A stretch of DNA of 64,000 bases from Pseudomonadota bacterium (GCA_014382245.1 JACNKC010000048.1:2032-66031), one strand, 5' to 3'. Positions 14,918 to 28,975 are shown, counted from the first letter of the stretch. Program-made: numbers and translations. Notes: a model not told the origin generated them from the sequence alone.

Positions 14918-16033
14918 CTAGAACTTGACGTTGATGTCCAGCCGGGCGCGCCAGTCGTCGTCGTTCGGTGACCCAAGGGCATCGTCGGCCCGCGACACCA
15001 GCAACCAGGGATGCACGTCAACGTTGTCGAAAGCCTTGTAGTGCAATCCAACGATATGCGCGCGCAGGTTTGTCTGCACTGTCATGTCGTCCTGCGAAAC
15101 CACTGACAACACCGCGTCCTGCCCCACGACCTGCCATTGGTAGTAACCCTGCATGTCGCCGACCTCGTTCTTGCTGCCGGCCTTTACGCCCAGCGACCAA
15201 CCGTAGTCCTCGTCGGGCTCGGCCCCGGTGTTGGCTATGAATTCACCCGACATCGTGACGGGCAGGCCGTTGTGGTCGCAGCTCACCGAAAACGAGGGGT
15301 TAATGATGTCGAAGTCGGACAGGAAATCATTGCCAGCCATGTCGGTGCGATTTCCCGAGTTGTCGGCGAATACCGTCTGGTCACCGCCCGGCGTCAAGTC
15401 ACTGTAGTGATAGTAATTCAACGCAGCCTTCACGGCAGCCTGGCCGACGGTGGTCGAGGCCGACACCCCGGCGGTCACAGCGGTCACCTCGTTACCATTG
15501 CCGTTTTCATTGAGAATGTAGGTGGTTACCGCGGCCCTGACGTTGTCGAGTTTACCCAGGCTACCGGCCGAGTACACCAGCGCGATGCCCTCGGGTTGCA
15601 CGTCGCCGTCCCAAACCAGCTCGTTGTACACCGCGTAGTTTTTCAGTACGTGCGAAAACTTGCCCGCCGTGATCGAAAGGCCTTCTGCCGCGGCCGGTTT
15701 CCAGCCGATCCACGCCCGGTCGAGGGCCACGTCCCAGTCGTTGAAGCTACTGCCGAAGGTCTGGTGGCTGCTGTTGGGGTCGTCGGTGTTACCTGTTACC
15801 AGGCGGGCCCCCAGCGTTATCTCGTCATTGATCGAGTAGGTGGCGCCTATGCGAGCACGCACGCGCTCGCGGTGCCGGTCACGGCCTGTTTCCACGAAGG
15901 TGCTTTCGTGGCGCAGGCGGAAATCGCCTGACAGGTCGAGCCCGTCAACAGCGCTGATGGCCGGGATTGGCAGGGCCGAAGTGGCGCCCACGAGCAACGC
16001 GGTGAATGCAACCGTAGCAATGATCCTGTTCAT
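14918..16033 (-). CDS. Outer-membrane porin-like beta-barrel protein
   Basis: Has a signal peptide, alternating amphipathic strands rich in G/Y/D/N, and a C-terminal NVKF. It is the last gene of the Mo-enzyme operon. Confidence 0.6.
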   Translation of the reverse strand: MNRIIATVAFTALLVGATSALPIPAISAVDGLDLSGDFRLRHESTFVETGRDRHRERVRARIGATYSINDEITLGARLVTGNTDDPNSSHQTFGSSFNDWDVALDRAWIGWKPAAAEGLSITAGKFSHVLKNYAVYNELVWDGDVQPEGIALVYSAGSLGKLDNVRAAVTTYILNENGNGNEVTAVTAGVSASTTVGQAAVKAALNYYHYSDLTPGGDQTVFADNSGNRTDMAGNDFLSDFDIINPSFSVSCDHNGLPVTMSGEFIANTGAEPDEDYGWSLGVKAGSKNEVGDMQGYYQWQVVGQDAVLSVVSQDDMTVQTNLRAHIVGLHYKAFDNVDVHPWLLVSRADDALGSPNDDDWRARLDINVKF

Positions 16034-16066
16034 GGTACTCTCCTTTTTTTCAGACGGTTTCGAAGT

Positions 16067-16702
16067 TCAGCGTAGCAGCTCTATTTCAACTCCAGGGGTC
16101 TTGCCCCCGGTGACGTTCACGCTCACCGGTTCGGCCCTCATGCGTTCGTTCCATATCTCGAGTTCGTAGTCACCCGGTGGAACGTTGTCGATGGTGAACG
16201 CGCCAGCGCTATCGGTGACCGAGAAGTAGGGGTTGTCGCGTACCACGACGTAGGCCACCATCAGGGCGTGCAGTTTGCACAGCTGGGTGTAAGTGCCGGT
16301 CTCCTTGAAAGTCCAGGTTTTTGAACCACCCTGCCCCCAGCTTCCGAGGTCGTAGGACTCACCGTCGGGTGAGAACACCGTGTGCTCGGCTGCATCGCTG
16401 TTCACGAATTTGACAGTCGTACCCTTGAGCACGGGCAGTACCCTGGGTACGAACTGCATGTCTTTCTGGTCCATCACCGGTTGTTCGGTCGGTGTCTTGA
16501 AATCTCCAGCTATGGCCTTGATGGCGACGACGGTGTTTTTTACATAGCGCTCGCGCCCAACCACCTTGCCGCTGATGGTTCCGGCGGCCGCCTGTTCTGC
16601 GCCCAGCAACAGCAAAGCTGACATGCCCAGCAACAACGCGGGGCGCAATCGGTGGCCGATGGACGGGCGGGACGAGTAACGATGGGCGGAGATGTTTTTC
16701 AT
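16067..16702 (-). CDS. Periplasmic type-1 copper (cupredoxin, amicyanin-like) protein embedded in a CarboxypepD_reg-like fold
   Basis: Has a signal peptide. Candidate copper ligands are H in AAEHTV and C-K-L-H-A-L-M (C-x2-H-x2-M spacing). Flanking GTISGKVVG and FTIDNVPPGDYELEIW segments are typical of carboxypeptidase-regulatory-like domains. Its start overlaps the stop of the Mo subunit gene. Confidence 0.55.
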   Translation of the reverse strand: MKNISAHRYSSRPSIGHRLRPALLLGMSALLLLGAEQAAAGTISGKVVGRERYVKNTVVAIKAIAGDFKTPTEQPVMDQKDMQFVPRVLPVLKGTTVKFVNSDAAEHTVFSPDGESYDLGSWGQGGSKTWTFKETGTYTQLCKLHALMVAYVVVRDNPYFSVTDSAGAFTIDNVPPGDYELEIWNERMRAEPVSVNVTGGKTPGVEIELLR

Positions 16703-19380
16703 ACGGTCTGTCCTATGTCGCGTGACTTGAAGGTCATTTTCTCAAGTGATTCCTTGTATTCCGATTCGCCGATCTTGCGCAACTTGCCCGACGCGAGCTT
16801 GAAGCGGTAGTTATTGGCAATAGGGTCACACACCCGCGGCACCAGGCTGTTGGCCGCCGCCTTGGGGTCGAGAAAGTACATGAACGCAACGCCGGGCTTG
16901 GGCACCGGCATCACCACCGCTACCGCTCTTACCGAGGCGCTGGTCATTTCTATGTGGCCGTTTTCTACCAGCTTGGAGAACAGGGCGTCCTCTGTGTCAC
17001 GGGCGACGAAGCCGGACTTCTGCACGGCCACGCGGTCGCTTTCGGCCACCACGTAGTCTCCGCTTTCTATGCCGAGACGTTCAGCATCGTCAGGGTGCAG
17101 CTCGATGAAGTTCTCGGGCCAGCGCCGCGTGATGTAGGGACGACGCTCCACGTCGTCGAAACCCGACTGCCAGATCTCGTTGACACGGCCGTTGATTACC
17201 CACAGTTCGCCGTCCTTGGGCCGGATATACTCGTAGTAGTCGGCGAACAGCCACCACGGCGACTTGATGAAGTTAGCCTTGCCCGACTGCGTGTTGAAAC
17301 CATTGAGTTTCTTGTTGTGTACGGTGGGTCCCTGCGGTCCCGTGGCCGGCAACTTGAGCGTGGAATCGTGCAGGCGCTTGGTGCCCAACAACTCGCCGTC
17401 TTCCCAGCGCACCGGTCCTTGTATGCCCGTGGTGCCGTAGCTGCGCAGCAGCTCGTGGCCCTTTACGCCGTCTTTCTTGGCCTTCCAGACCAGGGGGTAG
17501 TAGTCCTTGCGACTGCCCCTCGTGTGGCGCGCCGCCTCTTCGAAGACATCGTTGGATTCTTTCCACTCAAAGTCTGCAAAACCCATTCGCTGGCCGATCT
17601 GGCCGGCTATCCACCAGTCGGGCCTGGCGTCCCCGGGTGGGTCATAAAACTTGGAGTACACGCGCAGGCGACGCTCGCCGTTGGCCCTGACCAGGTCTTC
17701 TTCTCCCCAGCCGGCCGCCGGCAGAACGATGTCGGCGATCTCGGCTCCGATGGGGTTGCGCAAGTAAATATCCTGGTTGACCACCACCGTGCCACCCGAA
17801 TCGACGCGCTTCTTGAGCGTGCGGATGATGCTGCTCTTGCGGCTGCTCGTGACCTGGTTGGGATTGCGCCGCGTGAGATCGAGGAAGGTCTCGTGCAGGG
17901 CTCCACTGGCTGTCATGCCGGCCGTCCAGGTAGTCCCTATAACGTAAGCAAAACGGACGTTGCCGTTCTCGACCCAGCGGTCGAGGTCCAGGGTCTTGCG
18001 CCTACGACCGGCGAATTTTTCGGGCGAGCGTTCGAGCGGGTAACGACCCGCCTTTACGCCGCCACGCTGGTGACCACCCATGCGGCCGATCATCTGGCCG
18101 GGGCGGTTGCCCGCGCCGCACAAGAGTCCGAGCGAAGCGTAGGACGCCGAGTTGGTGTAGTTGTTGGACCAGTAGTTGCCCTTTTCGAGCACCAGCATGG
18201 TCCTGGGCCGGTTGCCGTTTTTGCGCGGGCGCGCCATGAGTTCGGCGGCCCTGTGGATATCGTCGGCGTCAAGCCCGCAAGTCCGGGCCGCGAAATCGAG
18301 CTTGGATTCATCTATCGAGAGAATCCACTCCTTGAAGCCAGCGTAGTCTTTCGCTTCGAACTTGCCCCAGGTGGTACGCCACTGCCACGGAGTGTTGCGC
18401 GTACCCTGGCCGAAACCTGACTCGATCTCCCATTTGTTAGACGTGTACTTCTTTATCCAGTCTGAATCTTCCCAGCCGTTTTCAATAATGATACGTGCAA
18501 GCGCGAGATGCAGCACGGTGTCGGTGCCCGGCGTGATCCACAGGTGCAGGCCGCCGGTTTCCTCGGCGAAGGTGCAGCCGGCCGTCTTGCGCGGGTTGAT
18601 CATTATGATCTTGGCCCGGTGACCCGACACGCCCTTCATGATCCAGTGATTGAAAAGAACGGTCTTGGTCTCGAAGGGATCGGTTCCCGAGATGACCAGG
18701 GTTTCGGCCAGCGAGTAGTCCTCGTAGCTGGGACCGAAGTTGTCGATGCCCACGTCGCGGAAGCCAGGCGTGGACGAGGTGACCGAGGGGTTGTCGTGCC
18801 ACGCGAAGGCCGGCGTGCGGATGCCCACGAGCGCGAGCTTGGTGAGCGCGTAGGTGTTCTCGAAGTAGTGGTAGGAGAACATCTTCTGTGCCCAGGAGTG
18901 CACGCCGTACTTGTCGATGACGTACTTGGAAACCTCGGCAAAAACGTCGAGGGCCGTGTCCCATGACACCTCCCTGAGCTCGCCGTCGATGCGAATCATG
19001 GGGTGCTTCAGCCGGTCGCGCGTGGGCGTCTCGGGGTTGTAGCATTTCTGGGCTATGCAGCCGCCGCGAATGCTGTGGTTGCCGTTAACGTTGACAACGG
19101 TCGCGTCCTGGTCCGGCGCCACTATCACGTTGTGGGGCTTGCCTTCGTGGCTGACCACGTTGTGCATGTTGGGGGTGAGCCACCCGCCTTTCTCAAGCTC
19201 GACCGGGTAGTCCAGGCCCAGGGCGTTTTCGTCGGCGCGCGGGCCGCCCTCCTTGCCCACAGGCCAGCGATAGACCTTGTAGCCACAAGCGACAATGCAG
19301 TAATCGCAAGCGGTGGTTATGACGTCGGCGTCTTTTGGCGGAAGCGGTACCCGGTCGGTTGCCCTGTTCTTGTCTGACAT
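16699..19380 (-). CDS. Mo-bisPGD large subunit of the arsenite oxidase AioA / iodate reductase IdrA clade
   Basis: 893 aa with no signal peptide. The N-terminal CDYCIVACGYKVYRWP...ENALGLD has the C-x2-C-x3-C 3Fe-4S pattern of AioA-type enzymes. It also has RMGGHQRG, NGERRLRVYSKFYDPPG and INGRVNEIWQS, recalled as AioA-like blocks. Confidence 0.85.
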   Translation of the reverse strand: MSDKNRATDRVPLPPKDADVITTACDYCIVACGYKVYRWPVGKEGGPRADENALGLDYPVELEKGGWLTPNMHNVVSHEGKPHNVIVAPDQDATVVNVNGNHSIRGGCIAQKCYNPETPTRDRLKHPMIRIDGELREVSWDTALDVFAEVSKYVIDKYGVHSWAQKMFSYHYFENTYALTKLALVGIRTPAFAWHDNPSVTSSTPGFRDVGIDNFGPSYEDYSLAETLVISGTDPFETKTVLFNHWIMKGVSGHRAKIIMINPRKTAGCTFAEETGGLHLWITPGTDTVLHLALARIIIENGWEDSDWIKKYTSNKWEIESGFGQGTRNTPWQWRTTWGKFEAKDYAGFKEWILSIDESKLDFAARTCGLDADDIHRAAELMARPRKNGNRPRTMLVLEKGNYWSNNYTNSASYASLGLLCGAGNRPGQMIGRMGGHQRGGVKAGRYPLERSPEKFAGRRRKTLDLDRWVENGNVRFAYVIGTTWTAGMTASGALHETFLDLTRRNPNQVTSSRKSSIIRTLKKRVDSGGTVVVNQDIYLRNPIGAEIADIVLPAAGWGEEDLVRANGERRLRVYSKFYDPPGDARPDWWIAGQIGQRMGFADFEWKESNDVFEEAARHTRGSRKDYYPLVWKAKKDGVKGHELLRSYGTTGIQGPVRWEDGELLGTKRLHDSTLKLPATGPQGPTVHNKKLNGFNTQSGKANFIKSPWWLFADYYEYIRPKDGELWVINGRVNEIWQSGFDDVERRPYITRRWPENFIELHPDDAERLGIESGDYVVAESDRVAVQKSGFVARDTEDALFSKLVENGHIEMTSASVRAVAVVMPVPKPGVAFMYFLDPKAAANSLVPRVCDPIANNYRFKLASGKLRKIGESEYKESLEKMTFKSRDIGQTV

Positions 19381-19408
19381 GACTTTCCTCTCTTTACTCG
19401 CCTGTTGA

Positions 19409-19993
19409 TCAGGAGTTAGCGCTGCGGCCGTACACCAGGCCCTGCAGCCCGGTCGCGTAGATGTCGTTTCCGTCGGTTTCGAGCACTACCTGCACCAGGC
19501 TCTGGGTGGCGTGACCCGATACGATCATGCCGTGACGGGTGAGGTCGAAGGTACTCAGGTGGGTGGGGCAGGGCCCCATGACCTTGCTGTCGCTCTTGTA
19601 CGAGGAGGCCAGTATTCCTCCCATGTGCGTGCACAGGGTCGAGAAAGCCACCACGTCGCCGTCCTTGCCAACACCTCCGCCGGCCTTCTCGCCGAGCTTG
19701 ATGAGCAGGTGGTTTGAGTAGGTCGCGTTGTCGTCCGGGTAGCGGAAGGGTATCGGTTTGTTGGTCACCAGTTCGTCGAGACCGGCTATGCGCTTGCGCG
19801 GGTACGGGGTACGCGTGGCTGCCACGGCACGGGTAGCACCGCCCCAGGGCGAGGTGACCAGGAGGGTGACGGTGATGGCACCGGCTCCCTCGAGGAAGCG
19901 GCGGCGTGAGATACGGCAGGGCGATTGGCCGGGGTCTGTTTCTAACCTGGCTTCGTGTTCGTCGACTTCGGGCTTCTGTATTACATCACTCAT
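19409..19993 (-). CDS. Tat-exported Rieske [2Fe-2S] small subunit (AioB/IdrB-like)
   Basis: Has a twin-arginine motif (SRRRFLEGAG) and Rieske boxes CTHMGG and CPTH. It lies immediately upstream of the Mo subunit gene. Confidence 0.8.
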   Translation of the reverse strand: MSDVIQKPEVDEHEARLETDPGQSPCRISRRRFLEGAGAITVTLLVTSPWGGATRAVAATRTPYPRKRIAGLDELVTNKPIPFRYPDDNATYSNHLLIKLGEKAGGGVGKDGDVVAFSTLCTHMGGILASSYKSDSKVMGPCPTHLSTFDLTRHGMIVSGHATQSLVQVVLETDGNDIYATGLQGLVYGRSANS

Positions 19994-21210
19994 TCGAAAA
20001 CTCCGTACCTGGGTAGTTCGGGGGGCTCCATGGTCAATTCCTCGCCGGTGAGCGATTCGAGAAAGGCGATGAGATCCTGTTTTTCGTCGTCGGCCAGCCC
20101 GAGGGGTCTTAGCACCGGCGTCTTGGTGGCCGTGCCTGTCAATAGTTTCGCGTGGTCGTCGCCGCCGCCCTGGTCGTAGAAGTCGATGACTTCCTCGAGC
20201 GTGAAAAACACGCCGTTGTGCATGTAGGGGGGCGTAAAGACCAGGTAGCGAAGCGTCGGCACCCTGAACTTGGCGATGTCGTGCTCCTGCTTGGTGCGGT
20301 AGTAGAGTCCCAGGTCTATCTTGGTGCGGCGGTATAGGTCTTCGCTCACTCCCTTGGCGAACTGCTCGAAGCGGAAGGTAATCTGCTTGAGCGGATCATC
20401 GTCGAAGACATCGTTCGGTGGCACCCCGAGGTTGTAGTACTTCTCGTTGCTGAACAGTGCGCCGTCGTGGCACTCTATGCAGCGAGCCTTGCCCTCGAAA
20501 AGTTCCTTGCCGCGCAACTCGGCTGGCCCCAGCGCGTTCTTGTCTCCGAGCATGTAGAGATCAAATGGCGTGTCTCGCTGTACGAGGGTGCGCTCGAAGG
20601 CCGCGATAGCCTTCCAGGCGTCGGGTAGCTCAGGACGCGCGTTACCGAAGACCTTCTTGAACCGCTTGTTGTACTCGGGGATTTGTCGCAGGCGTTCTTC
20701 CATCACGTCGCGCTCACCGTTTCCGGCCACGCCGCCGCGGGCGGCAGAAGGGGCCTGGGATTCGAGACTTTTTGCCGAGCCGGCCCAGAACAGCTTGCGG
20801 TAGTAAGCCGAGTTGATGATGGACTGGCAATTGCGCCAGTGGCTGGTCCCCGGGTAGCCCCGGCAGACCTCGGCACCGTCCTGCCAGCCTATGGCCGGGT
20901 CGTGGCAGGTTGCGCACGACAGGCTCACGTCGCCCGAGAGCCTGGGATCAAAGAACAGCAGCTTGCCCAGCTCTACCTTGGCAGCCGTGATCGGGTTATC
21001 GGCGGGAACCGGCGGCGGGCCGAGCGCCGCAAGGGGAGTGACGGCGCCCGGGCCCCCGTCGGTCGCCGGGCCGGTAGCGGCATCGGCAGCCACGGGGAGA
21101 AGAACCAGTCCCACCGCCGGTAGGATGGACAACAGGCCGGTAAGAATTGCTGGGCCTGCACTTGCTCGTATTTTCATGGCCAGGGAGCTCCTTGTTCTGT
21201 CGCGGCTCAT
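19990..21210 (-). CDS. Dihaem cytochrome c peroxidase (CCP/MauG family), copy 2
   Basis: Has a signal peptide and two haem motifs, CATCH and CIECH. Its stop overlaps the Rieske gene start. Confidence 0.85.
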   Translation of the reverse strand: MSRDRTRSSLAMKIRASAGPAILTGLLSILPAVGLVLLPVAADAATGPATDGGPGAVTPLAALGPPPVPADNPITAAKVELGKLLFFDPRLSGDVSLSCATCHDPAIGWQDGAEVCRGYPGTSHWRNCQSIINSAYYRKLFWAGSAKSLESQAPSAARGGVAGNGERDVMEERLRQIPEYNKRFKKVFGNARPELPDAWKAIAAFERTLVQRDTPFDLYMLGDKNALGPAELRGKELFEGKARCIECHDGALFSNEKYYNLGVPPNDVFDDDPLKQITFRFEQFAKGVSEDLYRRTKIDLGLYYRTKQEHDIAKFRVPTLRYLVFTPPYMHNGVFFTLEEVIDFYDQGGGDDHAKLLTGTATKTPVLRPLGLADDEKQDLIAFLESLTGEELTMEPPELPRYGVFE

Positions 21211-22328
21211 CAGTTGGGTACCGAGCGCCAGTCGGCTATGGCCTCGTAGGGTGGCAGGTCTATTTCACCTACCTCTATGGCGTCGCCCGACAGCGCTTCG
21301 AGGAAGGCGAGCAGGTCGGTCTTTTCGGCTGCGTTGAGATCGAGCGGCTTGAGCAAGGGGTCCCGGCCCTCGGCCGTACCGCCGCCGGCGTTGTAGAAAT
21401 CTATGACCTCCACCAGCGTGGCGATGGTGCCGTTGTGCATGTAGGGAGCGGTCCTGGACACTTCACGCAGGGTGGGAGTCACGAACTTGCCGCGGTCTTC
21501 TTCCTGCTTGCTGACGGTGAAGAAGCCAGGGTCTTCGCGGATAATCTCGAAGCCGGGCACGCCCATGAACTTGGCGAAGGATCTCAGGGTGAGATGCCTC
21601 AGCGGATCCCTGGTGATCTCGGGGTTTCCGGCCACGCCGGTGCGATGGGGCTGGTAGTCGCTCAGCATCGGCCCTTCGTGGCACTGTATGCAGCCCCCCT
21701 TGCCTTCGAACAATTGCTGCCCGCGGGTGGCCGAAGCAGACATGTTTCCCTCGTCGAAGGGCACGTTGCGCGACACGAGGGTTTTCTCGTAGGCCGAGAT
21801 GGCCTTCAGCGTCGCCCCGAAAGACGGCTCGGCGTTCATCGCCGACCTGAAGCGCTTGACGTACCCGGGTACCTGCTTGAGTCGTTCGAGCATGACGCGG
21901 CCGTCCATGTTCTGAAAATGCGACTCGGTGATCGAGTCACGCACCTGCGTCGGCATGTCCTTGCCCGTCAGGCGGCCGTCCCAGTAAAAATAGCGCGCGT
22001 GCGCCGCGTTGAGCACTGACTTCGTGTTGCGAAAGTACAGCGTGCCCGGGTAGGCGATGCCCAGCTGCTGGCCGTCGGTCCAGCCGGCCTCGGGGCGGTG
22101 GCAGGACCCGCAGGCCAGGACCGCGTCGCCCGAAAGACGCTGGTCGAAGAACAGGAGCTTACCCAGCTCGGCCAGTTCTGCCGAAGGGGCCTCGATGGCG
22201 GGCAGGGGACCGAGTGCCCGGGGTTGCGTTGTTGCTGCCGTGGCCCGATCCGCGGTGACCGCAAAACTCAAAACCAAACCGGCAAAGGCGATTCTAAGAA
22301 GACTACTGGGTCTTGTGGACATGCTCAC
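21210..22328 (-). CDS. Dihaem cytochrome c peroxidase (CCP/MauG family), copy 1
   Basis: Has a signal peptide and two haem motifs, CGSCH and CIQCH. There is a 1-nt stop/start overlap with the next peroxidase gene. Confidence 0.85.
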   Translation of the reverse strand: MSMSTRPSSLLRIAFAGLVLSFAVTADRATAATTQPRALGPLPAIEAPSAELAELGKLLFFDQRLSGDAVLACGSCHRPEAGWTDGQQLGIAYPGTLYFRNTKSVLNAAHARYFYWDGRLTGKDMPTQVRDSITESHFQNMDGRVMLERLKQVPGYVKRFRSAMNAEPSFGATLKAISAYEKTLVSRNVPFDEGNMSASATRGQQLFEGKGGCIQCHEGPMLSDYQPHRTGVAGNPEITRDPLRHLTLRSFAKFMGVPGFEIIREDPGFFTVSKQEEDRGKFVTPTLREVSRTAPYMHNGTIATLVEVIDFYNAGGGTAEGRDPLLKPLDLNAAEKTDLLAFLEALSGDAIEVGEIDLPPYEAIADWRSVPN

Positions 22329-22386
22329 TCCTTGGGGCTTTGACCGCTGCGGGTACTGTTGGTCAGCCGCTGGCCTGCAGGCTGTA

Positions 22387-22403
22387 AAGCAAGATACTTG
22401 CCG
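22387..22403 (-). promoter_or_regulatory. Candidate sigma54 (-24/-12) promoter upstream of the peroxidase/Mo-enzyme operon
   Basis: The minus strand reads cGGCAA-GTATC-TTGCt against the consensus TGGCAC-N5-TTGCW, with two mismatches. It lies about 60-75 nt upstream of the first CDS. Confidence 0.35.
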
Positions 22404-22657: not shown

Positions 22658-24745
22658 TCAGGGTTGTTGCCAGGAACGTATGAAGGAGACCAGGTCGAGT
22701 ATCTCGCCCGGTTTCAGCCACACCCCGGCGCCGGCTCCTTCGCCGAAGGCCGGCATGGGGGTGCCCGCGCGGCCACGGGCTATGGTGGCCAGCAGGAAAC
22801 CGTCGTCGGCTGCCTGCAGGAATTCAGGGTTGTTGATGGCCGGCGCGTACTCCGCATCGCCTCCACGCTTGCCTTTGCCTTTTTCGCCGTGGCAGGGGGC
22901 GCAGTAGCGTAACCAACTTGCCTTTCCGGCGGTCACGGCTTTCGCCGAGTCGTCGACCATGGGGCGGTGAATTCTCCAGGATTCGGGCTGTTCCCACTGA
23001 CGTATCCAGGCCACAAGGTCGGCTATGTCGCGGTCGGGCGTGTCGTTGTTGGATCCGACGGCGCTCATGATCTCGGCCAACGGCTGCATGGCTGTCCCGG
23101 CGCGGCCCGTCTCTATGGTCGCGGCCAACAGGGCGTCCGAAGCGTTGCGCAGCAACGATACGTTGTTGAGCTGGGAGCCCCGCGGGCTGCCCTGTCCCTG
23201 GCTGCCGTGGCAATCGGCGCAGAGTTTTTCGTAGAGCACACGGCCGCGTGTTTGGTCACCGGGTGCTGCTCGGGGAAGGGGAAGCCGCGACGGCGACTGT
23301 TGCCAGTCCCTTAGAAAGGCGAGCAGGTCGTTGAGCTGAGCGGCTTCAAGATCGCGGTGCGAAGGCATCGCTGTGCCCGGTCGACCGGAGACGATGGTCC
23401 GGGCGAGGAAGGTATCGTCGACAAGGGCCAGCAGGCCACTGGATCCGATAGCGTTGCCTATGCCTCCCTCGCCGTCCCAGCCGTGGCAGCCCATGCAGCG
23501 CGCCTCGTAGATCATCTCACCGTTGCCGGCGTTGCCCGCGCTTGAATCTGCGACGCCGGGATCCGGTCCCGTCGGTTCCCAGGAGCGCAGGTGTGCCACT
23601 ATGCGATCGATCTCGTCGCGTGCCAGGTTGCCGTGCCCGGCCCCCCAACGGGGCATTCCCGTGCCACTGCGCCCTTTCTCTATTATGAATCGATAGAAAT
23701 CGTCGCCCGCCACGGCCAGCGCCGACGGCAGGTTGAGTGTTGGGGTGTTGATCGCGTCCACGCGCCCGCCCAGCCCGTTGTCGCCGTGGCAGGCCGAGCA
23801 GAAGCCCTGGTAGAGCGTGGCGCCGTCGGCCCGGCTCGTGGCGGGGCCACGTCCGGCGGGGGCCCAGGAGTACTCGGCCGGCCCCGAGCGGCCCAGCGAC
23901 ATCATGTAGGCCGTGAGCGCCCGCGCCTCCGCTTCGCTCACGGTGGCCGGCATCACGCTGCCAGGTGATACCGAGGCCGGGTCGAGGAAGTGTCGGCTCA
24001 GCCAGCCCTCTACGTTTCGCGGGGCGTTGGAACCGATGGTAGAAAAATCAAAATCGTGGATCACGCTGTCGCCCACGTCGCTCAGGTCGGGGCCGCGCCT
24101 TCCGCCCCTGCCGTCTATGGCGTGGCAGCCCATGCAGCCCTGCTCGTTGAACAGCTGGCGTCCGCGCGAGAGCAACAGCGCGTTCTCGTTGCTGCCACGA
24201 TCGGCCCGCGTCATCAGCCCGGCGTCGCCGTGCAGGTCGGGTTCGAGGTGGCAGCGGCTGCACCTCGCTCGCAGGTGCTCGGTCGCCAGCATGGGCCGCT
24301 CCCAGTGAGCCACGCGGCCGTGTGCGTCGTCGGTTTCAGTGGCACGGCCCTGGCCCTGGTGGCAGACGGTGCAGCCGAACTTTTCTGGTGGGTGAAACTC
24401 CACGTGGCGGCCCGGGTGGGCGGCGAAGGGCCGGGGTTGGTCGGCCATGCGCGGGTCTTCGAGGCCCGCGTGGCAGGTTATGCAGCGGTCGGCTACGTCC
24501 AGCCGTGGTAGGTAGTTCTGCTGTATCTCCACGCGAAAGCCTGCCGCCGCCTGCTTGCCCGCGTCGTCGGTGGCCATCTCGTTGAGCAACAGGGCGTAGC
24601 GACTGCGCAGTCGGTACCAGTCGGCGAAGCGGTTTTCCTGGAGCGCGGCCACTACCAGCGTGGCGATGGTGGCGAGGCTGGTGACGAGCAGCGCCACCTT
24701 CATGCGTCGGTCGCTGCGGCGGGTCCTTGGGTCGAGCTCAGCCAT
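22658..24745 (-). CDS. Membrane-anchored octahaem c-type cytochrome
   Basis: Has one N-terminal TM helix and eight CxxCH motifs (CITCH, CTVCH, CSRCH, CMGCH, CSACH, CMGCH, CADCH, CAPCH). The last five sit in class-I-like modules with G(T/S)xMP Met-ligand motifs. Confidence 0.85.
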   Translation of the reverse strand: MAELDPRTRRSDRRMKVALLVTSLATIATLVVAALQENRFADWYRLRSRYALLLNEMATDDAGKQAAAGFRVEIQQNYLPRLDVADRCITCHAGLEDPRMADQPRPFAAHPGRHVEFHPPEKFGCTVCHQGQGRATETDDAHGRVAHWERPMLATEHLRARCSRCHLEPDLHGDAGLMTRADRGSNENALLLSRGRQLFNEQGCMGCHAIDGRGGRRGPDLSDVGDSVIHDFDFSTIGSNAPRNVEGWLSRHFLDPASVSPGSVMPATVSEAEARALTAYMMSLGRSGPAEYSWAPAGRGPATSRADGATLYQGFCSACHGDNGLGGRVDAINTPTLNLPSALAVAGDDFYRFIIEKGRSGTGMPRWGAGHGNLARDEIDRIVAHLRSWEPTGPDPGVADSSAGNAGNGEMIYEARCMGCHGWDGEGGIGNAIGSSGLLALVDDTFLARTIVSGRPGTAMPSHRDLEAAQLNDLLAFLRDWQQSPSRLPLPRAAPGDQTRGRVLYEKLCADCHGSQGQGSPRGSQLNNVSLLRNASDALLAATIETGRAGTAMQPLAEIMSAVGSNNDTPDRDIADLVAWIRQWEQPESWRIHRPMVDDSAKAVTAGKASWLRYCAPCHGEKGKGKRGGDAEYAPAINNPEFLQAADDGFLLATIARGRAGTPMPAFGEGAGAGVWLKPGEILDLVSFIRSWQQP

Positions 24746-24749
24746 ATAG

Positions 24750-26312
24750 TCAGTGCACCGGCCAGTGGGAGCGGCTCCAGTAAAAATCCCAGTTTGGACC
24801 GCGCAACTCCATGCCGACGTAGGTCATCACGACGAAGCCGGCCACGAAGCAGGTAAACAGGGCGATGGCGCCCAGTCGTGTTGAGCCGGTGTTGCGCAGT
24901 ATGACCAGCGACCAGGCGGCGTAGCCCAGCGTGAGCAGCGAGCCGGGGTTGACGAAGATGATGACGATCTGAGGTATGCCGGGGAACCAGTTGCGCAGCC
25001 AGCCGAAGTTAACCGGTATGGCCACCCAGGCCACGGCCAGCAGCACCGCGAAGGCGAGGCTCTGCAGGGCGATCTTGCGCCCGGCACGCCCGCTCATGTA
25101 GACCCCGGCCGGTTCTGCTTCGCGGTCCAGGTAGGGAATCAACGCCAGGCCGACCATGGCGACAGCGGGTATTACCAGTCCTCCCATGAAGGCCGAGTAC
25201 GAGACCATTTCCTGCAGGCCGAGGAAGTACCACGGCGCCTTGGCCGGGTTCTCGGGTACGTTGGGGTTGGCGATTTCCTTGAGCGGAGCGTCGTACAGCA
25301 CTCCCAGTACCAGGCAGGCCAGCGTACAGAGCATGAACACGACCAGCTCGCCCCTGAGCAGGTAGGGCCAGGTGGCGACGGTGTCGCCCGGCTCGTTGTC
25401 GGTGGCCGCCGAGCGGTCGCGTACAACCGCCATCAGCGACCAGGTCTTGTCGTTTTCGCCACCCGGTGGCGGCACGAGGTCGGGTGCCTGCCCGACAGCC
25501 CCGCTGGTCTGCTCGGCTTGCGGTCGGCCCAGGCCTCCGTCCTTGCGTATGCGCCAGAAGTGAACAGAGGCCAGCATTACCAGGACGATGGGCAGCAGCA
25601 TTACGTGCAGCAGGTAGAAACGCGTGAGCGCGTCCTGCCCGACTTCACCGGCACCGAGTAACAGCTCTTTCTGTAAGCCGCCCGGGTCGAACCATTGGGT
25701 AATTCCCAGCGCATCGGTCAACTCTCTTGGCGAGGAGGCTATGTTGGCGCCTATGGTGATCGCCCAGTAGGCCAACTGGTCCCAGGGCAGGAGGTAGCCG
25801 GTGAACGACAGCGCCAGGGTGACGACGAATAGAGCCATGCCCAGTAACCAGTTGAACTCGCGCGGGGCCTTGTAGCTGGCGGTGTAGAACACCCTGCACA
25901 TGTGCAGCATGACCACGATGACCATCAGGTGCGCGCCCCAGCGGTGGACGTTGCGTATCAGCCGGCCCGAGGGAACCACGTAGTGGATGTCCTTCATGCT
26001 GTTGTAGGCCAGCTCGGTTGACGGGGTGTAGTAGACCATCAGCAGGATGCCGGTGACCAGCAGTATGATGAAGAACGAAAGCGCGGCGATGCCCAGGCCG
26101 AAGGTCGCCGTCAATCCCAGCGTGCGAACGTGCACGCGGGTGGGGTGCAGGTGCAGGAACAGGCTTGAGAACACTGCCTGCGACCTGCCGCGTTCGGAGC
26201 GCGGACGGCCGTGGCGGAAAATCGAGTAGCTGAGCGTGTCGGGGAGACGGCGCAGGTTGGCTAGGAAAGCAGCCAGGCCACGCTTCTGGTCGAACCGTTT
26301 CATACCCGCCAC
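24750..26312 (-). CDS. Fused cytochrome b (b6-like N-part plus subunit-IV-like C-part with extra helices)
   Basis: Has conserved His pairs (RNVHRWGAHLMV, HVMLLP...SVHFW). The Qo-motif region reads KAPWYFLGLQE. Confidence 0.85.
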   Translation of the reverse strand: MAGMKRFDQKRGLAAFLANLRRLPDTLSYSIFRHGRPRSERGRSQAVFSSLFLHLHPTRVHVRTLGLTATFGLGIAALSFFIILLVTGILLMVYYTPSTELAYNSMKDIHYVVPSGRLIRNVHRWGAHLMVIVVMLHMCRVFYTASYKAPREFNWLLGMALFVVTLALSFTGYLLPWDQLAYWAITIGANIASSPRELTDALGITQWFDPGGLQKELLLGAGEVGQDALTRFYLLHVMLLPIVLVMLASVHFWRIRKDGGLGRPQAEQTSGAVGQAPDLVPPPGGENDKTWSLMAVVRDRSAATDNEPGDTVATWPYLLRGELVVFMLCTLACLVLGVLYDAPLKEIANPNVPENPAKAPWYFLGLQEMVSYSAFMGGLVIPAVAMVGLALIPYLDREAEPAGVYMSGRAGRKIALQSLAFAVLLAVAWVAIPVNFGWLRNWFPGIPQIVIIFVNPGSLLTLGYAAWSLVILRNTGSTRLGAIALFTCFVAGFVVMTYVGMELRGPNWDFYWSRSHWPVH

Positions 26313-26316
26313 TGCT

Positions 26317-26784
26317 TCAGGCCCTGAACCAGGTGCCCGCGGGCACTTCGCGGCCGGAGTCGACCGTGAGTCGTCCGTCGATGCTGCGGCTGACCTCGAG
26401 CCAGCGCAGCCCGCGCGGCGCCGGTCCGGCTACCACCGAGCCGTCCTTGGCAAAAGAAGAGCCGTGGCAAGGGCAGGCGAACCCCGTTTCGCTGCGATCG
26501 ACGATGCAGCCGAGGTGGGTGCACACCATGGATATGGCCGCGAAACCTTCCCGGCGTGACACCAGCAGGACGTTCTTGTCGGGAACAACCTGCATGCTGC
26601 CCACCGGGTAGTCCCGGCTGCGGCCGATCCTGAACCTGCGCGATGTTTCGGGCAACACGCGGGGGTTGGGCAGGCGTACCATGCCCGCCAAGGAGCCGAG
26701 CACGGCCAGTGCCGCGGTCCACCAGCCGGCAAGGCCGAGGAAGTCCCTGCGGGCAATGGGTTCGGGTTCAAGTCGTCCCGCCAC
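26317..26784 (-). CDS. Rieske iron-sulfur protein of the bc-type complex
   Basis: Has RRDFLGLAG, a TM anchor, and CTHLGC...CPCHGS. Confidence 0.85.
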   Translation of the reverse strand: MAGRLEPEPIARRDFLGLAGWWTAALAVLGSLAGMVRLPNPRVLPETSRRFRIGRSRDYPVGSMQVVPDKNVLLVSRREGFAAISMVCTHLGCIVDRSETGFACPCHGSSFAKDGSVVAGPAPRGLRWLEVSRSIDGRLTVDSGREVPAGTWFRA

Positions 26785-28696
26785 TTGTTTCCTCCTGCCG
26801 CGGAGCAGGTTCTACCTGCACCGGTTCTCGCTTGAACACGTAGCGTTCCATGGTTATCGCGCCTTCGGGGCAGCGCTGGGCGCAGAGCGCGCAGCGTATG
26901 CAGGCGCTTTCGTCCTTGATCAGTGCCGAGGCTTCGGTTGCGGGTAGCTGGCCCAGGCGATCGTGGACGGTGGCGGTGAGGCCTGCGTTGCCCTGGAGCC
27001 TTTCTATGCCGACGATGCGCAGGCAGTCCGACGGGCATACGTCTACGCACCCACCGCAGAGGATGCACGTGCTGCCGTTGAAAATTGTGTTGACACCGCA
27101 GTCGAGGCAGCGCGAGGCTTCGCGGCGTGCCTGCGCGTGGTCGAAACCCAGGTCCACTTCGGCAGACTGCGACAGGCTGCGTTGCCCGGCGGTGACCACT
27201 GGCGGGTCGCAGCGGCTTATTGATTCGTAGCCCTGCTCACGTTGATAGTCGGCCAGCACGATGTGCAGTTCGGTGTCGTGAACGCCGAGCTCGCGACCCG
27301 AGATGTCATGGTAGATAGAGCGCGCAGTTCGCTTGCCCGACGCTACGGCGTCGATGAGCAGGCGGGGGCCGTAGGCCAGGTCGCCGGCTACGTAGATGCC
27401 CTGCGTTCTGCTGCGGCCGCTGTCGGCGTCGCAGGGCAGCAGGCCGCGCTCATCGAGTTCTATGCCGTCGCGTTCGGGATCAATGAACGACAAGTCCACG
27501 GCCTGCCCGGCGGCGACGATGACAGTGTCGCAGGCTATGGTAACGGTGTCCGCGGCGTCGAAACTGGGAGAGAAACGGCCCTCGGAGTCGAAGCAGCTCG
27601 TGCAGCGCAGCATGGTGATGGCCGTTATGAACCCTTGCTCGTCCCGGTGTATCTCGCCCGGACCCAGTCCGTTGTGGCGCACGATTCCTTCCTCGGCTCC
27701 CTCTATGATTTCGACATCGTCGGCGGGCATTTCTTCCAGCGACTCGAGTGAGCACAGGTGGATCTCGGAGAAACGCTGCTGTCTCAGCGCGGTACGCGCG
27801 GCGTCGAGGCTGGTCTGCCTGACCACGGTGCGGCCCACGTCGTAGGCTACGTTACCGCCGCCTATGACAACGATGCGGTGGCCCAGCCGGGTCGTGTTGC
27901 CGAGCGCGACATCGCGCAGGAACTCAACGCCGCCGAGCACGCCTGGCCCTTTTGAACCCGGAAAATCCAGCATGCGGGAGCGCTTGGCTCCCACCGAAAG
28001 CAGCACCGCGTCGTGGCGCTGCCTGAGCTCGGCTACGCTCACGTCGCTGCCCACGCGGCAGCCGGTCATGGCGCGCACGCCCAGTTCTTCTATGACGGCT
28101 ACCTCGGCGCGGATGAGGTCGCGCGGCAGTCGGTACTCGGGTATTCCCAGCGCGAGCATGCCGGCGAGTACGGGTTCGCTTTCGTACACGGTTACCTCGA
28201 AGCCCAGCAGCGCCAGGTCGTGAGCGGCAGCGAGACCCGCTGGACCGCCCCCGACTATCCCCACCGACTTGCCGGTGACTGGTGTGACCTCGCCGCGCGA
28301 GATCGAGCGCAGCAGCGGCAGGAGTTCTTCGCGGCCCTCGCAGTCGTGCTCGCTGTTGCGGGCGGCGCTGCTGCGCAGGAAGTCAACCAGGTCGCCACCG
28401 TAGGAGTGATGGGTGAGAAAACTGTCGCAGGCAAAGCGCTTGAGCGCCCGGATGGCCACCGGCTTGTCAATCTCGCCGCGGCGGCAGGCTTTCTCGCAGG
28501 GAGCGCCGCAGACCCGTCCACAGATCGAGGCCAAGGGGTTGGGGCCGCGGGCTATGAGGTAGGCCTGTTCCAGCTCGCCGCTTGCTATGGCCCGCACGTA
28601 GCCGCGCGCGTCGGTGCCCACCGGGCAGGCGGACTGGCACTTCACCTGTTCTTTCCAGTACCCGTTGAGGGGTACTCTTGTGTTGATTGCTTGCAC
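26768..28696 (-). CDS. GltD/SudA-like NAD(P)-binding FAD flavoprotein with N-terminal Fe-S region and C-terminal 2x[4Fe-4S] ferredoxin domain
   Basis: Has CQSACPVGTD...CGRVCGAPCEKAC, GIVGGGPAGLAAAHDLALLGFEVTVYE...GIPEYRLP, and C-terminal CILCGGCVDVCP and CIRCALCAQRCP. The start is set at an in-frame GTG (28696) because a sigma54 box lies inside the tracked TTG extension, so the start is uncertain. Its stop overlaps the Rieske gene start by 17 nt. Confidence 0.75.
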   Translation of the reverse strand: MQAINTRVPLNGYWKEQVKCQSACPVGTDARGYVRAIASGELEQAYLIARGPNPLASICGRVCGAPCEKACRRGEIDKPVAIRALKRFACDSFLTHHSYGGDLVDFLRSSAARNSEHDCEGREELLPLLRSISRGEVTPVTGKSVGIVGGGPAGLAAAHDLALLGFEVTVYESEPVLAGMLALGIPEYRLPRDLIRAEVAVIEELGVRAMTGCRVGSDVSVAELRQRHDAVLLSVGAKRSRMLDFPGSKGPGVLGGVEFLRDVALGNTTRLGHRIVVIGGGNVAYDVGRTVVRQTSLDAARTALRQQRFSEIHLCSLESLEEMPADDVEIIEGAEEGIVRHNGLGPGEIHRDEQGFITAITMLRCTSCFDSEGRFSPSFDAADTVTIACDTVIVAAGQAVDLSFIDPERDGIELDERGLLPCDADSGRSRTQGIYVAGDLAYGPRLLIDAVASGKRTARSIYHDISGRELGVHDTELHIVLADYQREQGYESISRCDPPVVTAGQRSLSQSAEVDLGFDHAQARREASRCLDCGVNTIFNGSTCILCGGCVDVCPSDCLRIVGIERLQGNAGLTATVHDRLGQLPATEASALIKDESACIRCALCAQRCPEGAITMERYVFKREPVQVEPAPRQEETSGGTT

Positions 28697-28769
28697 TTTG
28701 CGCCGCGAGACCGCATGCCGCGCGCCGCGGTCGACCGGCGGCCGATCGCGGGGGCGACAGGCGGTGGCA

Positions 28770-28784
28770 GCAAGCCCTGTGCCA
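28770..28784 (-). promoter_or_regulatory. Consensus sigma54 (-24/-12) promoter upstream of the Rieske/cyt b operon
   Basis: The minus strand reads TGGCAC-AGGGC-TTGC-T, an exact match to TGGCAC-N5-TTGCW. It lies about 75 nt upstream of the GTG at 28696. Confidence 0.5.
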
Positions 28785-28975
28785 CAGGGCGCAGCCGGGT
28801 CCGGCCCCAGCGATAGCAAACAGAATGGGGCTTTGCACGCATAGGAAAGGCAGGCAAACAGCGGTCGGATTCCGCCTTGTGCCAAGCAAACGGTTTTGTA
28901 TTCCCAGTATTGAGAAAATGAAACGTGGCCGGCTGGAGCCAGGCTCCGCCCCCGGCCAACTCGCTGGCAAGCTCC

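Follow-up and report, generated by a model that had tools for sequence, protein, structure and literature searches.

Known dissimilatory iodate reductase (Idr) systems are those of Pseudomonas sp. SCT, Denitromonas iodatirespirans IR-12, Azoarcus sp. DN11, Aromatoleum toluclasticum TC-10 and Azonexus hydrophilus NCP973, and a further Idr is predicted in Ca. Methylomirabilis iodofontis. The canonical published gene order is idrP2,P1,B,A (PMC10989891), and the two peroxidases are the published discriminator between idr and the arsenite oxidase (aio) loci (PMC8692401). Iodate respiration has been demonstrated in the isolate A. hydrophilus NCP973 (PMC13455634), IdrA has been activity-stained in Roseovarius azorensis (PMC11445184), and heterologous expression has been reported for one alphaproteobacterial and one SAR324 MAG cluster (PMC13455634). 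Ruegeria halocynthiae and Roseibium album are among the idr carriers in Table S3 of PMC8692401, where idr is described as a mobile island, and in Azonexus we find it to be plasmid-borne, with TnsA and IS21 genes as neighbors. The published Idr model has the housekeeping bc1 complex supplying the electrons via cytochrome c551.

Two other described systems bear on the locus reported here. Arsenite oxidase (Aio), for which our named comparators are those of A. faecalis, Pseudorhizobium banfieldiae NT-26 and Thermus thermophilus HB8, likewise pairs a Tat-Rieske small subunit with a Mo-bisPGD large subunit that carries a 3Fe-4S cluster, the small-subunit gene lying upstream, and it too uses a small soluble carrier (azurin or cytochrome c). 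The Kuenenia-type complexes are NAD(P)-oxidoreductase-containing Rieske/cytochrome b complexes of anammox bacteria, in which a multihaem cytochrome c replaces cytochrome f or c1 (PMC12954380). We analysed a 64-kb stretch of DNA (the window) from a bacterium filed under Pseudomonadota and probably belonging to Binatota.

Composition of the idr block

Six co-directional minus-strand ORFs occupy positions 14918-22328. The original prediction had described six linked genes at 14918-22403, and ORF, Pfam and NCBIfam analyses agree with its family calls and with every motif it quoted:

14918..16033, minus strand: outer-membrane porin of the Porin_5 family, 371 aa, with a signal peptide and a C-terminal Phe
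16067..16702, minus strand: secreted type-1 (blue) copper protein, 211 aa, Copper-bind and CarboxypepD_reg (Pfam); copper binding predicted
16699..19380, minus strand: idrA, Mo-bisPGD catalytic subunit with 3Fe-4S motif, 893 aa; CDYCIVACGY, FSYHYFEN, RMGGHQRG
19409..19993, minus strand: idrB, Tat-exported Rieske small subunit, 194 aa; SRRRFL, CTH, CPTH
19990..21210, minus strand: idrP1-type dihaem cytochrome c peroxidase (CCP), 406 aa (395 aa by the gene callers' start); CATCH, CIECH
21210..22328, minus strand: idrP2-type dihaem CCP, 372 aa (370 aa from the ATG at 22322); CGSCH, CIQCH

The genes are tightly packed. The 28- and 33-nt gaps given in the original prediction are present, but its count of four overlaps among the five junctions is one too many: we count three, of 1, 4 and 4 nt, one of the 4-nt overlaps joining the start of the cupredoxin gene to the idrA stop codon. 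With the gene callers' 395-aa start for the second CCP, the 1-nt CCP/CCP overlap becomes a 32-nt gap. The boundaries of the unit also need revision. No start codon lies at 22403, where the 5' end had been placed; the earliest possible start of idrP2 is the GTG at 22328, with the ATG at 22322 as an alternative, and a weak sigma-54-like site falls at position 22403. Nor does the run of genes end at the first CCP, since the next four genes upstream, at 22658-28885, are respiratory and run in the same direction.

Family models agree with these assignments. Both CCPs match PF03150 (120 bits for the idrP2 type, 146 bits for the idrP1 type), the small subunit matches NCBIfam arsenite_ox_S (123 bits, cutoff 96), and the Mo subunit matches arsenite_ox_L (462 bits) together with Pfam PF18465 (Rieske_3, 127 bits), PF00384 and PF01568. 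The C25-x2-C28-x3-C32 motif for the 3Fe-4S cluster is kept in 83 of 84 Mo-subunit sequences. The porin is identified by a single Pfam match, to PF16930 (79 bits, cutoff 22).

Placement of the core among Idr and arsenite oxidase

All four core proteins have their orthologues in the Azonexus idr cluster, and in the same order, which supports an Idr-type reading. Each CCP has its top match in the Azonexus CCP at the corresponding position, which for the idrP2-type CCP is the first of that cluster (42.6% identity, 287 bits), and the idrP1-type CCP, small subunit and Mo subunit are 56.8%, 50.9% and 54.1% identical to the second CCP, IdrB and IdrA of A. hydrophilus NCP973, respectively. The Mo subunit is 62-63% identical to IdrA of Ca. 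M. iodofontis (locus L026) and 57% identical to the proteins of R. halocynthiae and R. album, and the members of its immediate subclade, from KSB1, Calditrichaceae and Desulfobacterales, reach 67-70%. Verified or tested Idr systems are 54-58% identical to that of the window. With AioA from NT-26, T. thermophilus HB8 and four others, the Mo subunit shares 27-33% identity. The P2-P1-B-A synteny holds in 76 of 80 related species loci. The original prediction had called the layout Idr-like, and the resemblance stands, but "like" undersells it: because CCP-CCP-B-A is the published canonical order, the core is by its sequence of an already known kind, typical of an iodate-respiration cluster, down to the Tat signal on IdrB and the cysteine motif in IdrA.

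A neighbor-joining tree of the 893-aa protein (90 sequences, 84 Idr-type and six AioA; 888 columns; 100 bootstraps) leads to the same placement. The 84 Idr-type sequences, which include the window, Azonexus NCP973, Ca. M. iodofontis, R. halocynthiae and R. album, form a clade split from the six AioA in 100 of 100 bootstraps. Azonexus NCP973 supplies the only isolate IdrA in this tree, those of Denitromonas IR-12 and Pseudomonas SCT having been left out, and nodes inside the tree are weak (8-60%), such that the position of the window among the subclades is not fixed by it. Membership in AioA is rejected, as the large subunit falls outside verified AioA in the tree and Glu203 is replaced.

The active site tells a similar story. 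We take the arsenite-site residues to be His195, Glu203, Arg419 and His423 (A. faecalis numbering). Glu203 of AioA is Ser in the window and is Glu in none of the 84 Idr-type sequences, so that the arsenite-site residues are not all conserved; the other three are retained as His195, Arg433 and His437. Asn196, Arg197 and Tyr200, invariant in AioA, are altered in the Mo subunit of the window, and the AioA motif GGHQ-E-G-Y reads GGHQ-R-G-G, as in 83 of the 84 Idr-type proteins. The window shares GGHQRG and Ser203 with the alphaproteobacterial Idr type, and differs from Azonexus IdrA at several positions adjacent to the active site (e.g., GGHQC in Azonexus vs GGHQR here).

The competing interpretation is an AioBA with unusual neighbors, which would oxidize As(III) and pass electrons to the blue-copper protein in the way that A. 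faecalis Aio passes them to azurin. Its appeal comes from the known cupredoxin partner of Aio, from the three retained arsenite-site residues, from NCBIfam models that name both subunits arsenite oxidase above curated cutoffs, and from AioA being the only solved relatives, and the closest solved structure, of the Mo subunit. Against these stand the low identity to verified AioA compared with 54-70% to Idr-type proteins, the fully supported split, the changes at Glu203, Asn196, Arg197, Tyr200 and GGHQEGY, and the two peroxidases, which aio loci lack and which serve as the published discriminator (PMC8692401). Gene neighborhoods point the same way: the reference aio loci of NT-26, Burkholderia, Hydrogenophaga and Nitrobacter have aioXSR, ars or AioX-type neighbors, whereas none of aioXSR, ars genes and phosphonate-type AioX neighbors is found in the 64-kb window, and the cytC-moeA context of the reference loci is absent from it as well. 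The arsenite-oxidase reading is already largely refuted, and we give it very little chance of being correct; the view that the enzyme is more likely Idr-type, as originally predicted, is upheld by identity, clade, synteny and Ser203. The reaction in the window presumably runs in the opposite direction to that of Aio.

Copper protein, porin and the upstream Rieske/cytochrome b module

Where the window departs from known Idr systems is in what surrounds the core. The gene after idrA encodes the blue-copper protein rather than a monohaem cytochrome c, and the porin gene comes next. Neither moaA nor the sensor kinase and sigma-54 regulator are adjacent, and genes for a Rieske/cytochrome b complex lie directly upstream. 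The copper gene occupies the position that a small or monohaem cytochrome c has in Azonexus, Thiothrix and SAR324-type idr loci and in aio loci. In its product, a CarboxypepD_reg-like beta-sandwich holds a cupredoxin domain of the amicyanin type. The C-x2-H-x2-M loop is short, as in amicyanin, and the putative copper ligands H107, C142, H145 and M148 are invariant in 35 homologues and five paralogues. In Foldseek searches with an AlphaFold2 model (pLDDT 88.9), the top matches are amicyanin, plastocyanin and pseudoazurin, at TM 0.7-0.8 over the cupredoxin domain. The cupredoxin fold and His-Cys-His-Met ligands are those of a type-1 copper protein, and copper binding is predicted from them. The copper site is the same as in amicyanin, pseudoazurin and plastocyanin, and the difference is that the cupredoxin of the window is embedded in or fused to the beta-sandwich, an architecture for which we found no characterized member; in the sources it goes by no name more specific than 'plastocyanin' or 'carboxypeptidase regulatory-like domain-containing protein'.

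The copper protein and porin had been flagged as accessories unfamiliar from aio or idr loci. This holds insofar as we found no paper describing an idr-linked copper protein, porin or Rieske/cytochrome b accessory, but they are not unique to the window and recur in many non-proteobacterial idr loci. Of 36 non-proteobacterial-type idr loci, 26 encode similar copper proteins and 13 have Porin_5 genes; Porin_5 genes are present in 15 of the 80 related idr loci, and also in loci L093, L095, L096 and L097.

The Rieske/cytochrome b complex is a larger feature that the original prediction missed. Its genes and the associated promoter-like sites are:

22388..22403, minus strand: weak sigma-54-like site cGGCAaGTATCTTGCT, in the 329-nt gap upstream of idrP2
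22658..24745, minus strand: membrane-anchored octahaem cytochrome c, 695 aa, with eight CxxCH and an N-terminal TM
24750..26312, minus strand: cytochrome b, 520 aa, 8 predicted TM helices, b6-like and subunit-IV-like parts fused
26317..26784, minus strand: Rieske 2Fe-2S subunit, 155 aa, N-terminal membrane anchor; Pfam Rieske
26768..28885, minus strand: NAD(P)-binding FeS flavoprotein (GltD-like) subunit, maximal ORF 705 aa
28769..28784, minus strand: exact sigma-54 -24/-12 consensus TGGCACAGGGCTTGCT, ~73 nt upstream of the probable true start of the flavoprotein

Homologues of the flavoprotein align from residue 64 of the 705-aa ORF, and its true start is likely the GTG near 28696, giving ~642 aa. 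It matches Pfam Fer4_20, Pyr_redox_2, NAD_binding_8 and Fer4_7 and NCBIfam PRK12771 ('NAD(P)-binding protein', 384 bits), and its counterparts in idr loci L093 and L094 share 50-52% identity with it. Cytochrome b matches Pfam Cytochrome_B and Cytochrom_B_N_2 as well as NCBIfam ExtP (246 bits) and ExtQ (55 bits), and its top PDB matches are cytochrome b6. The octahaem cytochrome c carries Cytochrom_C and Cytochrome_CBB3 repeats (Pfam), and its N-terminal 305 aa are homologous to the multihaem cytochrome c that closes the same module in L093 and L098. Among 74 PDB matches of the Rieske subunit, 9rk4 (Kuste4569 of Kuenenia) is best (E 4.6e-23) and 9rk3 (Kustd1480) third.

By its subunit set the module is of the Kuenenia type, the sequence comparison with Kuenenia covering the Rieske protein alone. 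As in Kuste4569-4574 and Kustd1480-1485, a Rieske protein and a b6-like cytochrome b plus a subunit-IV-like part are accompanied by a multihaem cytochrome c (hexa- or octahaem) anchored in the membrane and by an NAD(P) oxidoreductase of the FeS/FAD kind. The module of the window differs in that cytochrome b and subunit IV are fused and in having no HAO-like octahaem protein, and the genes linked to it are those of a Mo enzyme and a cupredoxin, not anammox genes. The same module type adjoins idr in L004, L006, L008, L021, L050 and L095 (five other species), and module-linked idr loci come from KSB1, Calditrichaceae, Desulfobacterales, Nitrospinota and one unclassified metagenome contig. No such module stands next to idr in any of 44 marine alpha/gamma-type loci. 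In those six loci the module lies downstream of idrA, and in the window it lies upstream of idr; because the position differs, the linkage of module and idr has survived rearrangement.

Of the two promoter-like sites, TGGCACAGGGCTTGCT is the sole exact match to TGGCAC-N5-TTGCW in the 64-kb window. cGGCAaGTATCTTGCT has two mismatches, retains GG and GC, and is by itself no better than chance; it may be an internal promoter. In Azonexus, TGGCACAGTGACTGCA lies 66 nt upstream of idrP2. A sensor kinase and a sigma-54-dependent regulator beside idr are common, not defining: they occur in Azonexus, Thiothrix, Calditrichaceae and Desulfobacterales, and tblastn with both finds nothing in the 64-kb window.

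Proposed electron supply, substrate and coupling

We propose, with a probability of roughly 0.7, that the locus encodes an Idr-family iodate reductase with its own electron supply, running from quinol through the Rieske/cytochrome b complex and the copper protein to IdrB, with anion entry through the porin. By homology, IdrA and IdrB would reduce IO3- to HIO or I- in the periplasm, and the two dihaem peroxidases would remove H2O2 or other oxidants arising in the reaction. The membrane complex, built from the Rieske protein, the fused b6/subunit-IV cytochrome b, the anchored octahaem cytochrome c and the cytoplasmic NAD(P)-binding FeS flavoprotein, would oxidize quinol as a dedicated supply for the idr core. 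The high-potential electron could then pass via the octahaem cytochrome c to the secreted amicyanin-like blue-copper protein, which would stand in for the monohaem cytochrome c of proteobacterial idr and reduce the Rieske center of IdrB. In favor of this model, members of the copper-protein family also stand next to the same module in L098 and L100, where idr is not nearby. The Porin_5 channel is a likely entry route for the anion, and expression of the locus is probably sigma-54 dependent. A dedicated electron route had been suggested from the copper protein and porin, and the adjacent complex is now the best support for that idea.

The complex could instead be a general respiratory complex of this organism beside a horizontally inserted idr island, with no dedicated coupling. 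The GC content of the idr block (61.3%) is 4.5 points below that of the Rieske/cytochrome b block and both flanks (65.8%), and between the blocks lies a 329-nt gap that contains a weak promoter-like site; given the difference in GC together with the gap, the two blocks may be transcribed separately and differ in origin. The mobility of idr (PMC8692401), seen also in its plasmid setting in Azonexus, fits such an insertion, and the copper-protein family adjoins the same module with no idr nearby in L098 and L100. However, the association of this module type with idr in six other loci under a different gene order, its absence beside idr from all 44 marine alpha/gamma-type loci, and the placement of the copper gene, whose start overlaps the idrA stop codon and which stands apart from the Rieske/cytochrome b genes, all weigh against chance adjacency, and we consider an uncoupled complex rather unlikely.

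A true member of the Idr clade might also act on a high-potential oxyanion or oxidant other than iodate (such as bromate, chlorate, selenate or nitrate), or run as an oxidase. The clade is broad (54-70% identity) with few members tested, the subclade of the window carries other accessories and departs from Azonexus in positions close to the active site, and the cytochrome b of the window shows similarity to ExtP/ExtQ, from a Geobacter operon for which the NCBIfam name refers to selenite/tellurite reduction. This possibility is countered by the GGHQRG and Ser203 shared with the alphaproteobacterial type, members of which have experimental support (PMC11445184, PMC13455634), and by the retention of two peroxidases across the whole clade. 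The idr sensor kinases of Calditrichaceae and Azonexus are moreover homologous over their full length (30% identity, E 7e-99), which argues for a common inducer. A different substrate or direction therefore strikes us as improbable, and on the basis of homology we infer that this locus reduces iodate.

Under the proposed iodate-reductase reading, what is unusual in the window is the joining of an idr core to a blue-copper carrier, a porin and what would be a dedicated quinol-oxidizing membrane complex.

Core genes and identity of the molybdoenzyme

The six co-directional minus-strand genes of the original prediction are all present, as is every motif quoted for them, and each assignment is backed by Pfam and NCBIfam. 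Details of the unit, which had been drawn with four overlapping junctions, a 5' end at 22403 and six genes only, require revision. There are three overlaps and two gaps; no start codon lies at 22403, the earliest possible start being a GTG at 22328; and the co-directional array runs on upstream to about 28.7 kb.

Genes of the idr block, with the basis of each assignment
21210-22328, minus strand: dihaem cytochrome c peroxidase IdrP2 (motifs and Pfam)
19990-21210, minus strand: dihaem cytochrome c peroxidase IdrP1 (motifs and Pfam)
19409-19993, minus strand: Tat-Rieske protein IdrB (motifs, Pfam and NCBIfam)
16699-19380, minus strand: Mo-bisPGD subunit IdrA, 893 aa (motifs, Pfam and NCBIfam)
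16067-16702, minus strand: cupredoxin, here the copper protein (Pfam)
14918-16033, minus strand: porin (Pfam PF16930)

Both molybdoenzyme subunits are named arsenite oxidase (Aio) subunits by NCBIfam, and the sole solved relatives of IdrA are AioA proteins, at about 310 bits. The top NCBIfam matches of IdrP1 and IdrP2 are MauG/MbnH-type families, far under the cutoffs. Among the matches listed, IdrA has ~120 relatives of roughly 890 aa at 56-69% identity, and scanning one genome per species gave 574, of which the best 80 were examined. The nearest, sharing 67-70% identity with it, come from MAGs of KSB1, Calditrichaceae and Desulfobacterales.

The proposal of an Idr-like (dissimilatory iodate reductase) enzyme rather than an arsenite oxidase is supported by phylogeny, orthology with Azonexus, gene order and active-site columns, which all agree. 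A neighbor-joining tree (84 Idr-type proteins and 6 AioA, 888 columns, 100 bootstraps) splits Idr-type proteins from AioA with 100% support. Isolate IdrA is represented in this tree by Azonexus, without Denitromonas IR-12 or Pseudomonas SCT, whose IdrA appear neither in the best 80 of 574 genomes nor among the top 120 relatives found with a homologue from a betaproteobacterial MAG. The window IdrA is nested, with weak inner nodes, among Azonexus, Ca. Methylomirabilis iodofontis (locus L026), Ruegeria halocynthiae and Roseibium album, the last two being named idr carriers (PMC8692401 Table S3). Searching plasmids with IdrA by tblastn gives a bimodal result, with three Idr-type matches at about 54% and ~59 AioA matches at 27-31% that take in NT-26, Sinorhizobium M14 and Thermus thermophilus HB8. 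One of the three is Azonexus hydrophilus NCP973, which is among five isolated dissimilatory iodate reducers and for which iodate reduction has been demonstrated (PMC13455634). All four core proteins of the window have the same-position Azonexus protein as their top match, and the published order idrP2,P1,B,A (CCP-CCP-Rieske-Mo; PMC10989891) is kept in 76 of the best 80 loci.

In the active-site columns, the window IdrA retains His195, Arg433 and His437. AioA Glu203 is replaced by Ser, and Glu occurs there in none of the 84 Idr-type proteins; the AioA-invariant N196, R197 and Y200 are altered, and GGHQEGY becomes GGHQRGG. The AioA Ala199 column corresponds to the position from which other DMSO-reductase-family enzymes ligate Mo through Ser, Cys or Sec. 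Ser stands there in the window IdrA (residue 199) and, across the Idr-type set, in 54 of 84 proteins, against Gly in 14, Thr in 8 and Ala in 8. No aioXSR, ars, cld or moaA genes were found within the 64-kb window. The large subunit thus stands apart from AioA instead of falling inside the verified enzymes with arsenite-site residues intact, and therefore the Idr reading stands; with the 100% split, the loss of Glu203 and no aioXSR or ars genes in the window, we reject arsenite oxidase. Judged from its sequence, the core is an ordinary idr cluster in a taxonomically new setting and a member of a known family.

Public naming obscures this family. Among the public records listed, Idr-type large subunits are essentially all called ‘arsenate reductase (azurin) large subunit’ or ‘arsenite oxidase large subunit’, and they exceed the cutoff of NCBIfam TIGR02693 (462 against 359 bits for the window IdrA). 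This is a systematic mislabel across the Idr clade, and annotation pipelines that use ‘arsenate reductase (azurin)’ for these genes mislead.

Related loci from other genomes vary around the core. L097 (4031-8726; IdrA 66% identical) carries four tandem dihaem peroxidase genes, then idrB-idrA, then a Porin_5 gene directly, and L011 has similarly doubled peroxidase genes. L096 (4147-18517; IdrA 67% identical) has the order dihaem c, idrB, idrA, CCP, CCP, copper protein, followed by a 683-aa protein without Pfam matches and three cytochrome c genes. The Azonexus hydrophilus NCP973 locus (L084; NZ_CP151407.1, 236976-255648) sits on a 319-kb plasmid, where a TnsA-like gene and an IS21 element flank the idr cluster, a setting in line with the idea of a mobile ‘iodate reduction island’. 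Nearly all marine alpha/gamma-type loci (L030, L035-L083) have a 720-800-aa haem-free ORF directly after idrA, which its size and the annotation in Azonexus and Thiothrix suggest is probably a sensor kinase.

Copper protein and porin

The copper-protein gene overlaps the stop codon of idrA. Its 211-aa product carries a Sec signal, and His107 and Cys142-x2-His145-x2-Met148 are invariant across 35 homologues, a predicted type-1 copper site that is complete and has a short amicyanin-type loop. In an AlphaFold model from the 35-homologue alignment (pLDDT 88.9), the cupredoxin domain matches amicyanin, plastocyanin and pseudoazurin, and the remainder is a CarboxypepD_reg-like sandwich. A monohaem cytochrome c instead fills this slot in the idr loci of Azonexus, Thiothrix, a Nitrospinota MAG and a SAR324-like group, and the same position in the aio loci of NT-26, Burkholderia and Hydrogenophaga. 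Given this positional replacement and the Aio-azurin precedent, the copper protein is likely the electron donor to IdrB. Among the best 80 of 574 species loci, 27 have a gene of this family within 10 kb of idrA, and these are distributed as 26 of 36 non-proteobacterial-type loci versus 1 of 44 marine alpha/gamma-type loci. Relatives often encode two paralogues: the one that precedes idrP2 has ~250 aa, the one that follows idrA has ~192 aa, and each carries the four Cu ligands.

The porin matches PF16930 (Porin_5) at 79 bits and has a signal peptide and a C-terminal Phe. Porin_5 genes lie beside idr in 15 of the best 80 of 574 loci, 13 of them within the 36 non-proteobacterial-type loci, and are placed ahead of the upstream copper-protein gene or immediately downstream of idrA. 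No sequence relative was found in the PDB, a single-sequence AlphaFold model reached a pLDDT of only 29, and a function in iodate entry is something we infer only.

Copper protein and porin had been flagged as accessories unfamiliar from idr loci. Both recur in other idr loci, yet we found no paper describing either. More broadly, full-text searches, with most subscription journals outside their scope and thus not proof, returned no paper tying idr to a cupredoxin, such a porin or a Rieske/cytochrome b complex. The surroundings of idrABP1P2 are reported as poorly conserved (PMC8692401), and these three accessories go unmentioned in PMC13455634.

A perfect tandem repeat (14682-14860; 26-nt unit CCCTACCCAGCTCCCCGGACGGGAAG, 6.9 copies, 100% matches) lies in the interval where the porin gene and a 358-aa plus-strand gene converge. 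Same-locus contigs from two other samples stop ~30 nt beyond the porin stop, just short of the repeat, which is either real and assembly-breaking or an assembly artefact.

The upstream Rieske/cytochrome b module

Four same-strand genes upstream encode all the parts of a Rieske/cytochrome b complex, plus one additional subunit.

Genes of the upstream module, with the basis of each assignment
26768-28885, minus strand: NAD(P)-binding FeS flavoprotein, 705-aa ORF (domain searches)
26317-26784, minus strand: Rieske protein (domain searches)
24750-26312, minus strand: cytochrome b, 8 TM, with b6-like and subunit-IV-like halves (domain and TM prediction)
22658-24745, minus strand: octahaem cytochrome c, membrane-anchored (domain searches)

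This subunit composition is the same as that of the Kuenenia complexes Kuste4569-4574 and Kustd1480-1485, for which quinol-based bifurcation yielding NAD(P)H has been proposed (PMC12954380). The best solved relative of the window Rieske protein is Kuste4569 (9rk4), with Kustd1480 (9rk3) third. In KSB1, Calditrichaceae and Desulfobacterales species loci and a metagenome contig, the module follows idrA and the copper-protein gene, and in a Nitrospinota MAG it follows idrA and a cytochrome c. It is thus upstream in the window and downstream in relatives, and the linkage has therefore outlived rearrangement. Where idr is not in the vicinity, in Ca. Sulfotelmatobacter and an Omnitrophica MAG, the copper-protein family also adjoins the module, which seems to mark the copper protein as a carrier belonging to the complex itself. 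Module and copper-protein gene have as neighbor in L098 (5418-6953, Acidobacteria) and L100 (5511-6911, Omnitrophica) a secreted protein of 466-511 aa with one N-terminal CxxCH, no Pfam match and an aromatic C-terminus like that of outer-membrane proteins; the L098 and L100 proteins share 29% identity, and no homologue was found in the window.

The main rival to such dedicated coupling is that the idr block may have been inserted later and be transcribed separately. The block (14918-22328, with copper protein and porin) has 61.3% GC versus 65.8-66.2% in the Rieske/cytochrome b block and both flanks, in keeping with horizontal acquisition, and the two blocks are 329 nt apart. Linkage of the two blocks is observed; their co-transcription is presumed. 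The window has a single exact sigma-54 consensus (28769-28784), which falls within the N-terminal extension of the flavoprotein ORF, 73 nt upstream of the start used in homologues. Since the first 63 codons (28697-28885) have no counterpart in homologues and contain this consensus, our ORF lister and the public gene call both probably over-extend the gene. The exact site fits with the sigma-54 regulators that flank idr elsewhere; no such regulator was found in the window. Sigma-54 sites within 400 nt before idrP2 are not general (6 of 75 loci versus a 6% background); three of the six are exact matches, and Azonexus has a one-mismatch site. Rfam at the gathering threshold found nothing in the window, such as a Moco riboswitch, and a scan for sigma-70 promoters and terminators gave sites no commoner than in shuffled sequence.

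Elsewhere in the window, the GlnRS gene adjoining the locus (28976-30676) encodes a protein that clusters at at least 90% identity with MAG proteins labelled Candidatus Binatota or Deltaproteobacteria. Other Pfam-scanned genes are mostly CoA-transferases and acyl-CoA enzymes, with housekeeping GlnRS and BipA; they include several family-III CoA-transferases, an enoyl-CoA hydratase, a thiolase-like protein, ETF and a xanthine-dehydrogenase-family Mo enzyme. Four ORFs, the largest of 851 aa, have coding-like GC3 and no Pfam match at E<=1e-5.

ORFs in the window without a Pfam match
5744-8299, minus strand
41851-42882, minus strand
53132-54649, plus strand
55176-56204, plus strand

Proposed electron route and significance

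With iodate as the substrate and an order of carriers that we infer, the best-supported route is a quinol-to-iodate chain via the copper protein. Electrons would pass from quinol through the Rieske/cytochrome b complex to octahaem c, then through the blue-copper protein to the IdrB Rieske centre, and on through the IdrA 3Fe-4S cluster and Mo to iodate. The anion would enter through the porin, and IdrP1 and IdrP2 would clear peroxide or other oxidants. It is possible, though we think it unlikely, that the complex beside idr is a bifurcating one that splits quinol electrons, downhill to iodate and uphill to NAD(P)H. On the downhill branch, octahaem c, the copper protein and IdrBA would relay one electron to iodate (about +0.7 V); on the uphill branch, the other would cross the b haems and then the FeS clusters before reaching the flavoprotein, where NAD(P)H would form. 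To our knowledge, the anammox-type bifurcating complex has been proposed but never demonstrated, and no exergonic partner is known for Kustd1480-1485. If bifurcation does occur, the recurrent pairing of this complex and a copper carrier with a very high-potential reductase would identify the exergonic partner reaction.

Iodate reduction influences the iodide pool in oxygen-poor waters and iodine-rich groundwater, and the iodate reducers and models known to us so far come from Proteobacteria. In the proteobacterial models, Idr is assumed to be fed by the housekeeping bc1 complex via cytochrome c551, whereas here we see a blue-copper carrier that is frequently accompanied by a porin and, in some lineages, by a dedicated Rieske/cytochrome b complex carrying an NAD(P) oxidoreductase. 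With a copper carrier, a porin and, most notably, an NAD(P)-linked complex joined to a known idr core, this locus is a novel version of a familiar system. Its arrangement spans KSB1, Calditrichota, Desulfobacterota, Nitrospinota and probably Binatota, lengthening the roster of likely iodate reducers, and a defined terminal acceptor makes it testable what NAD(P)-linked Rieske/cytochrome b complexes do, a question also at issue in anammox bioenergetics.
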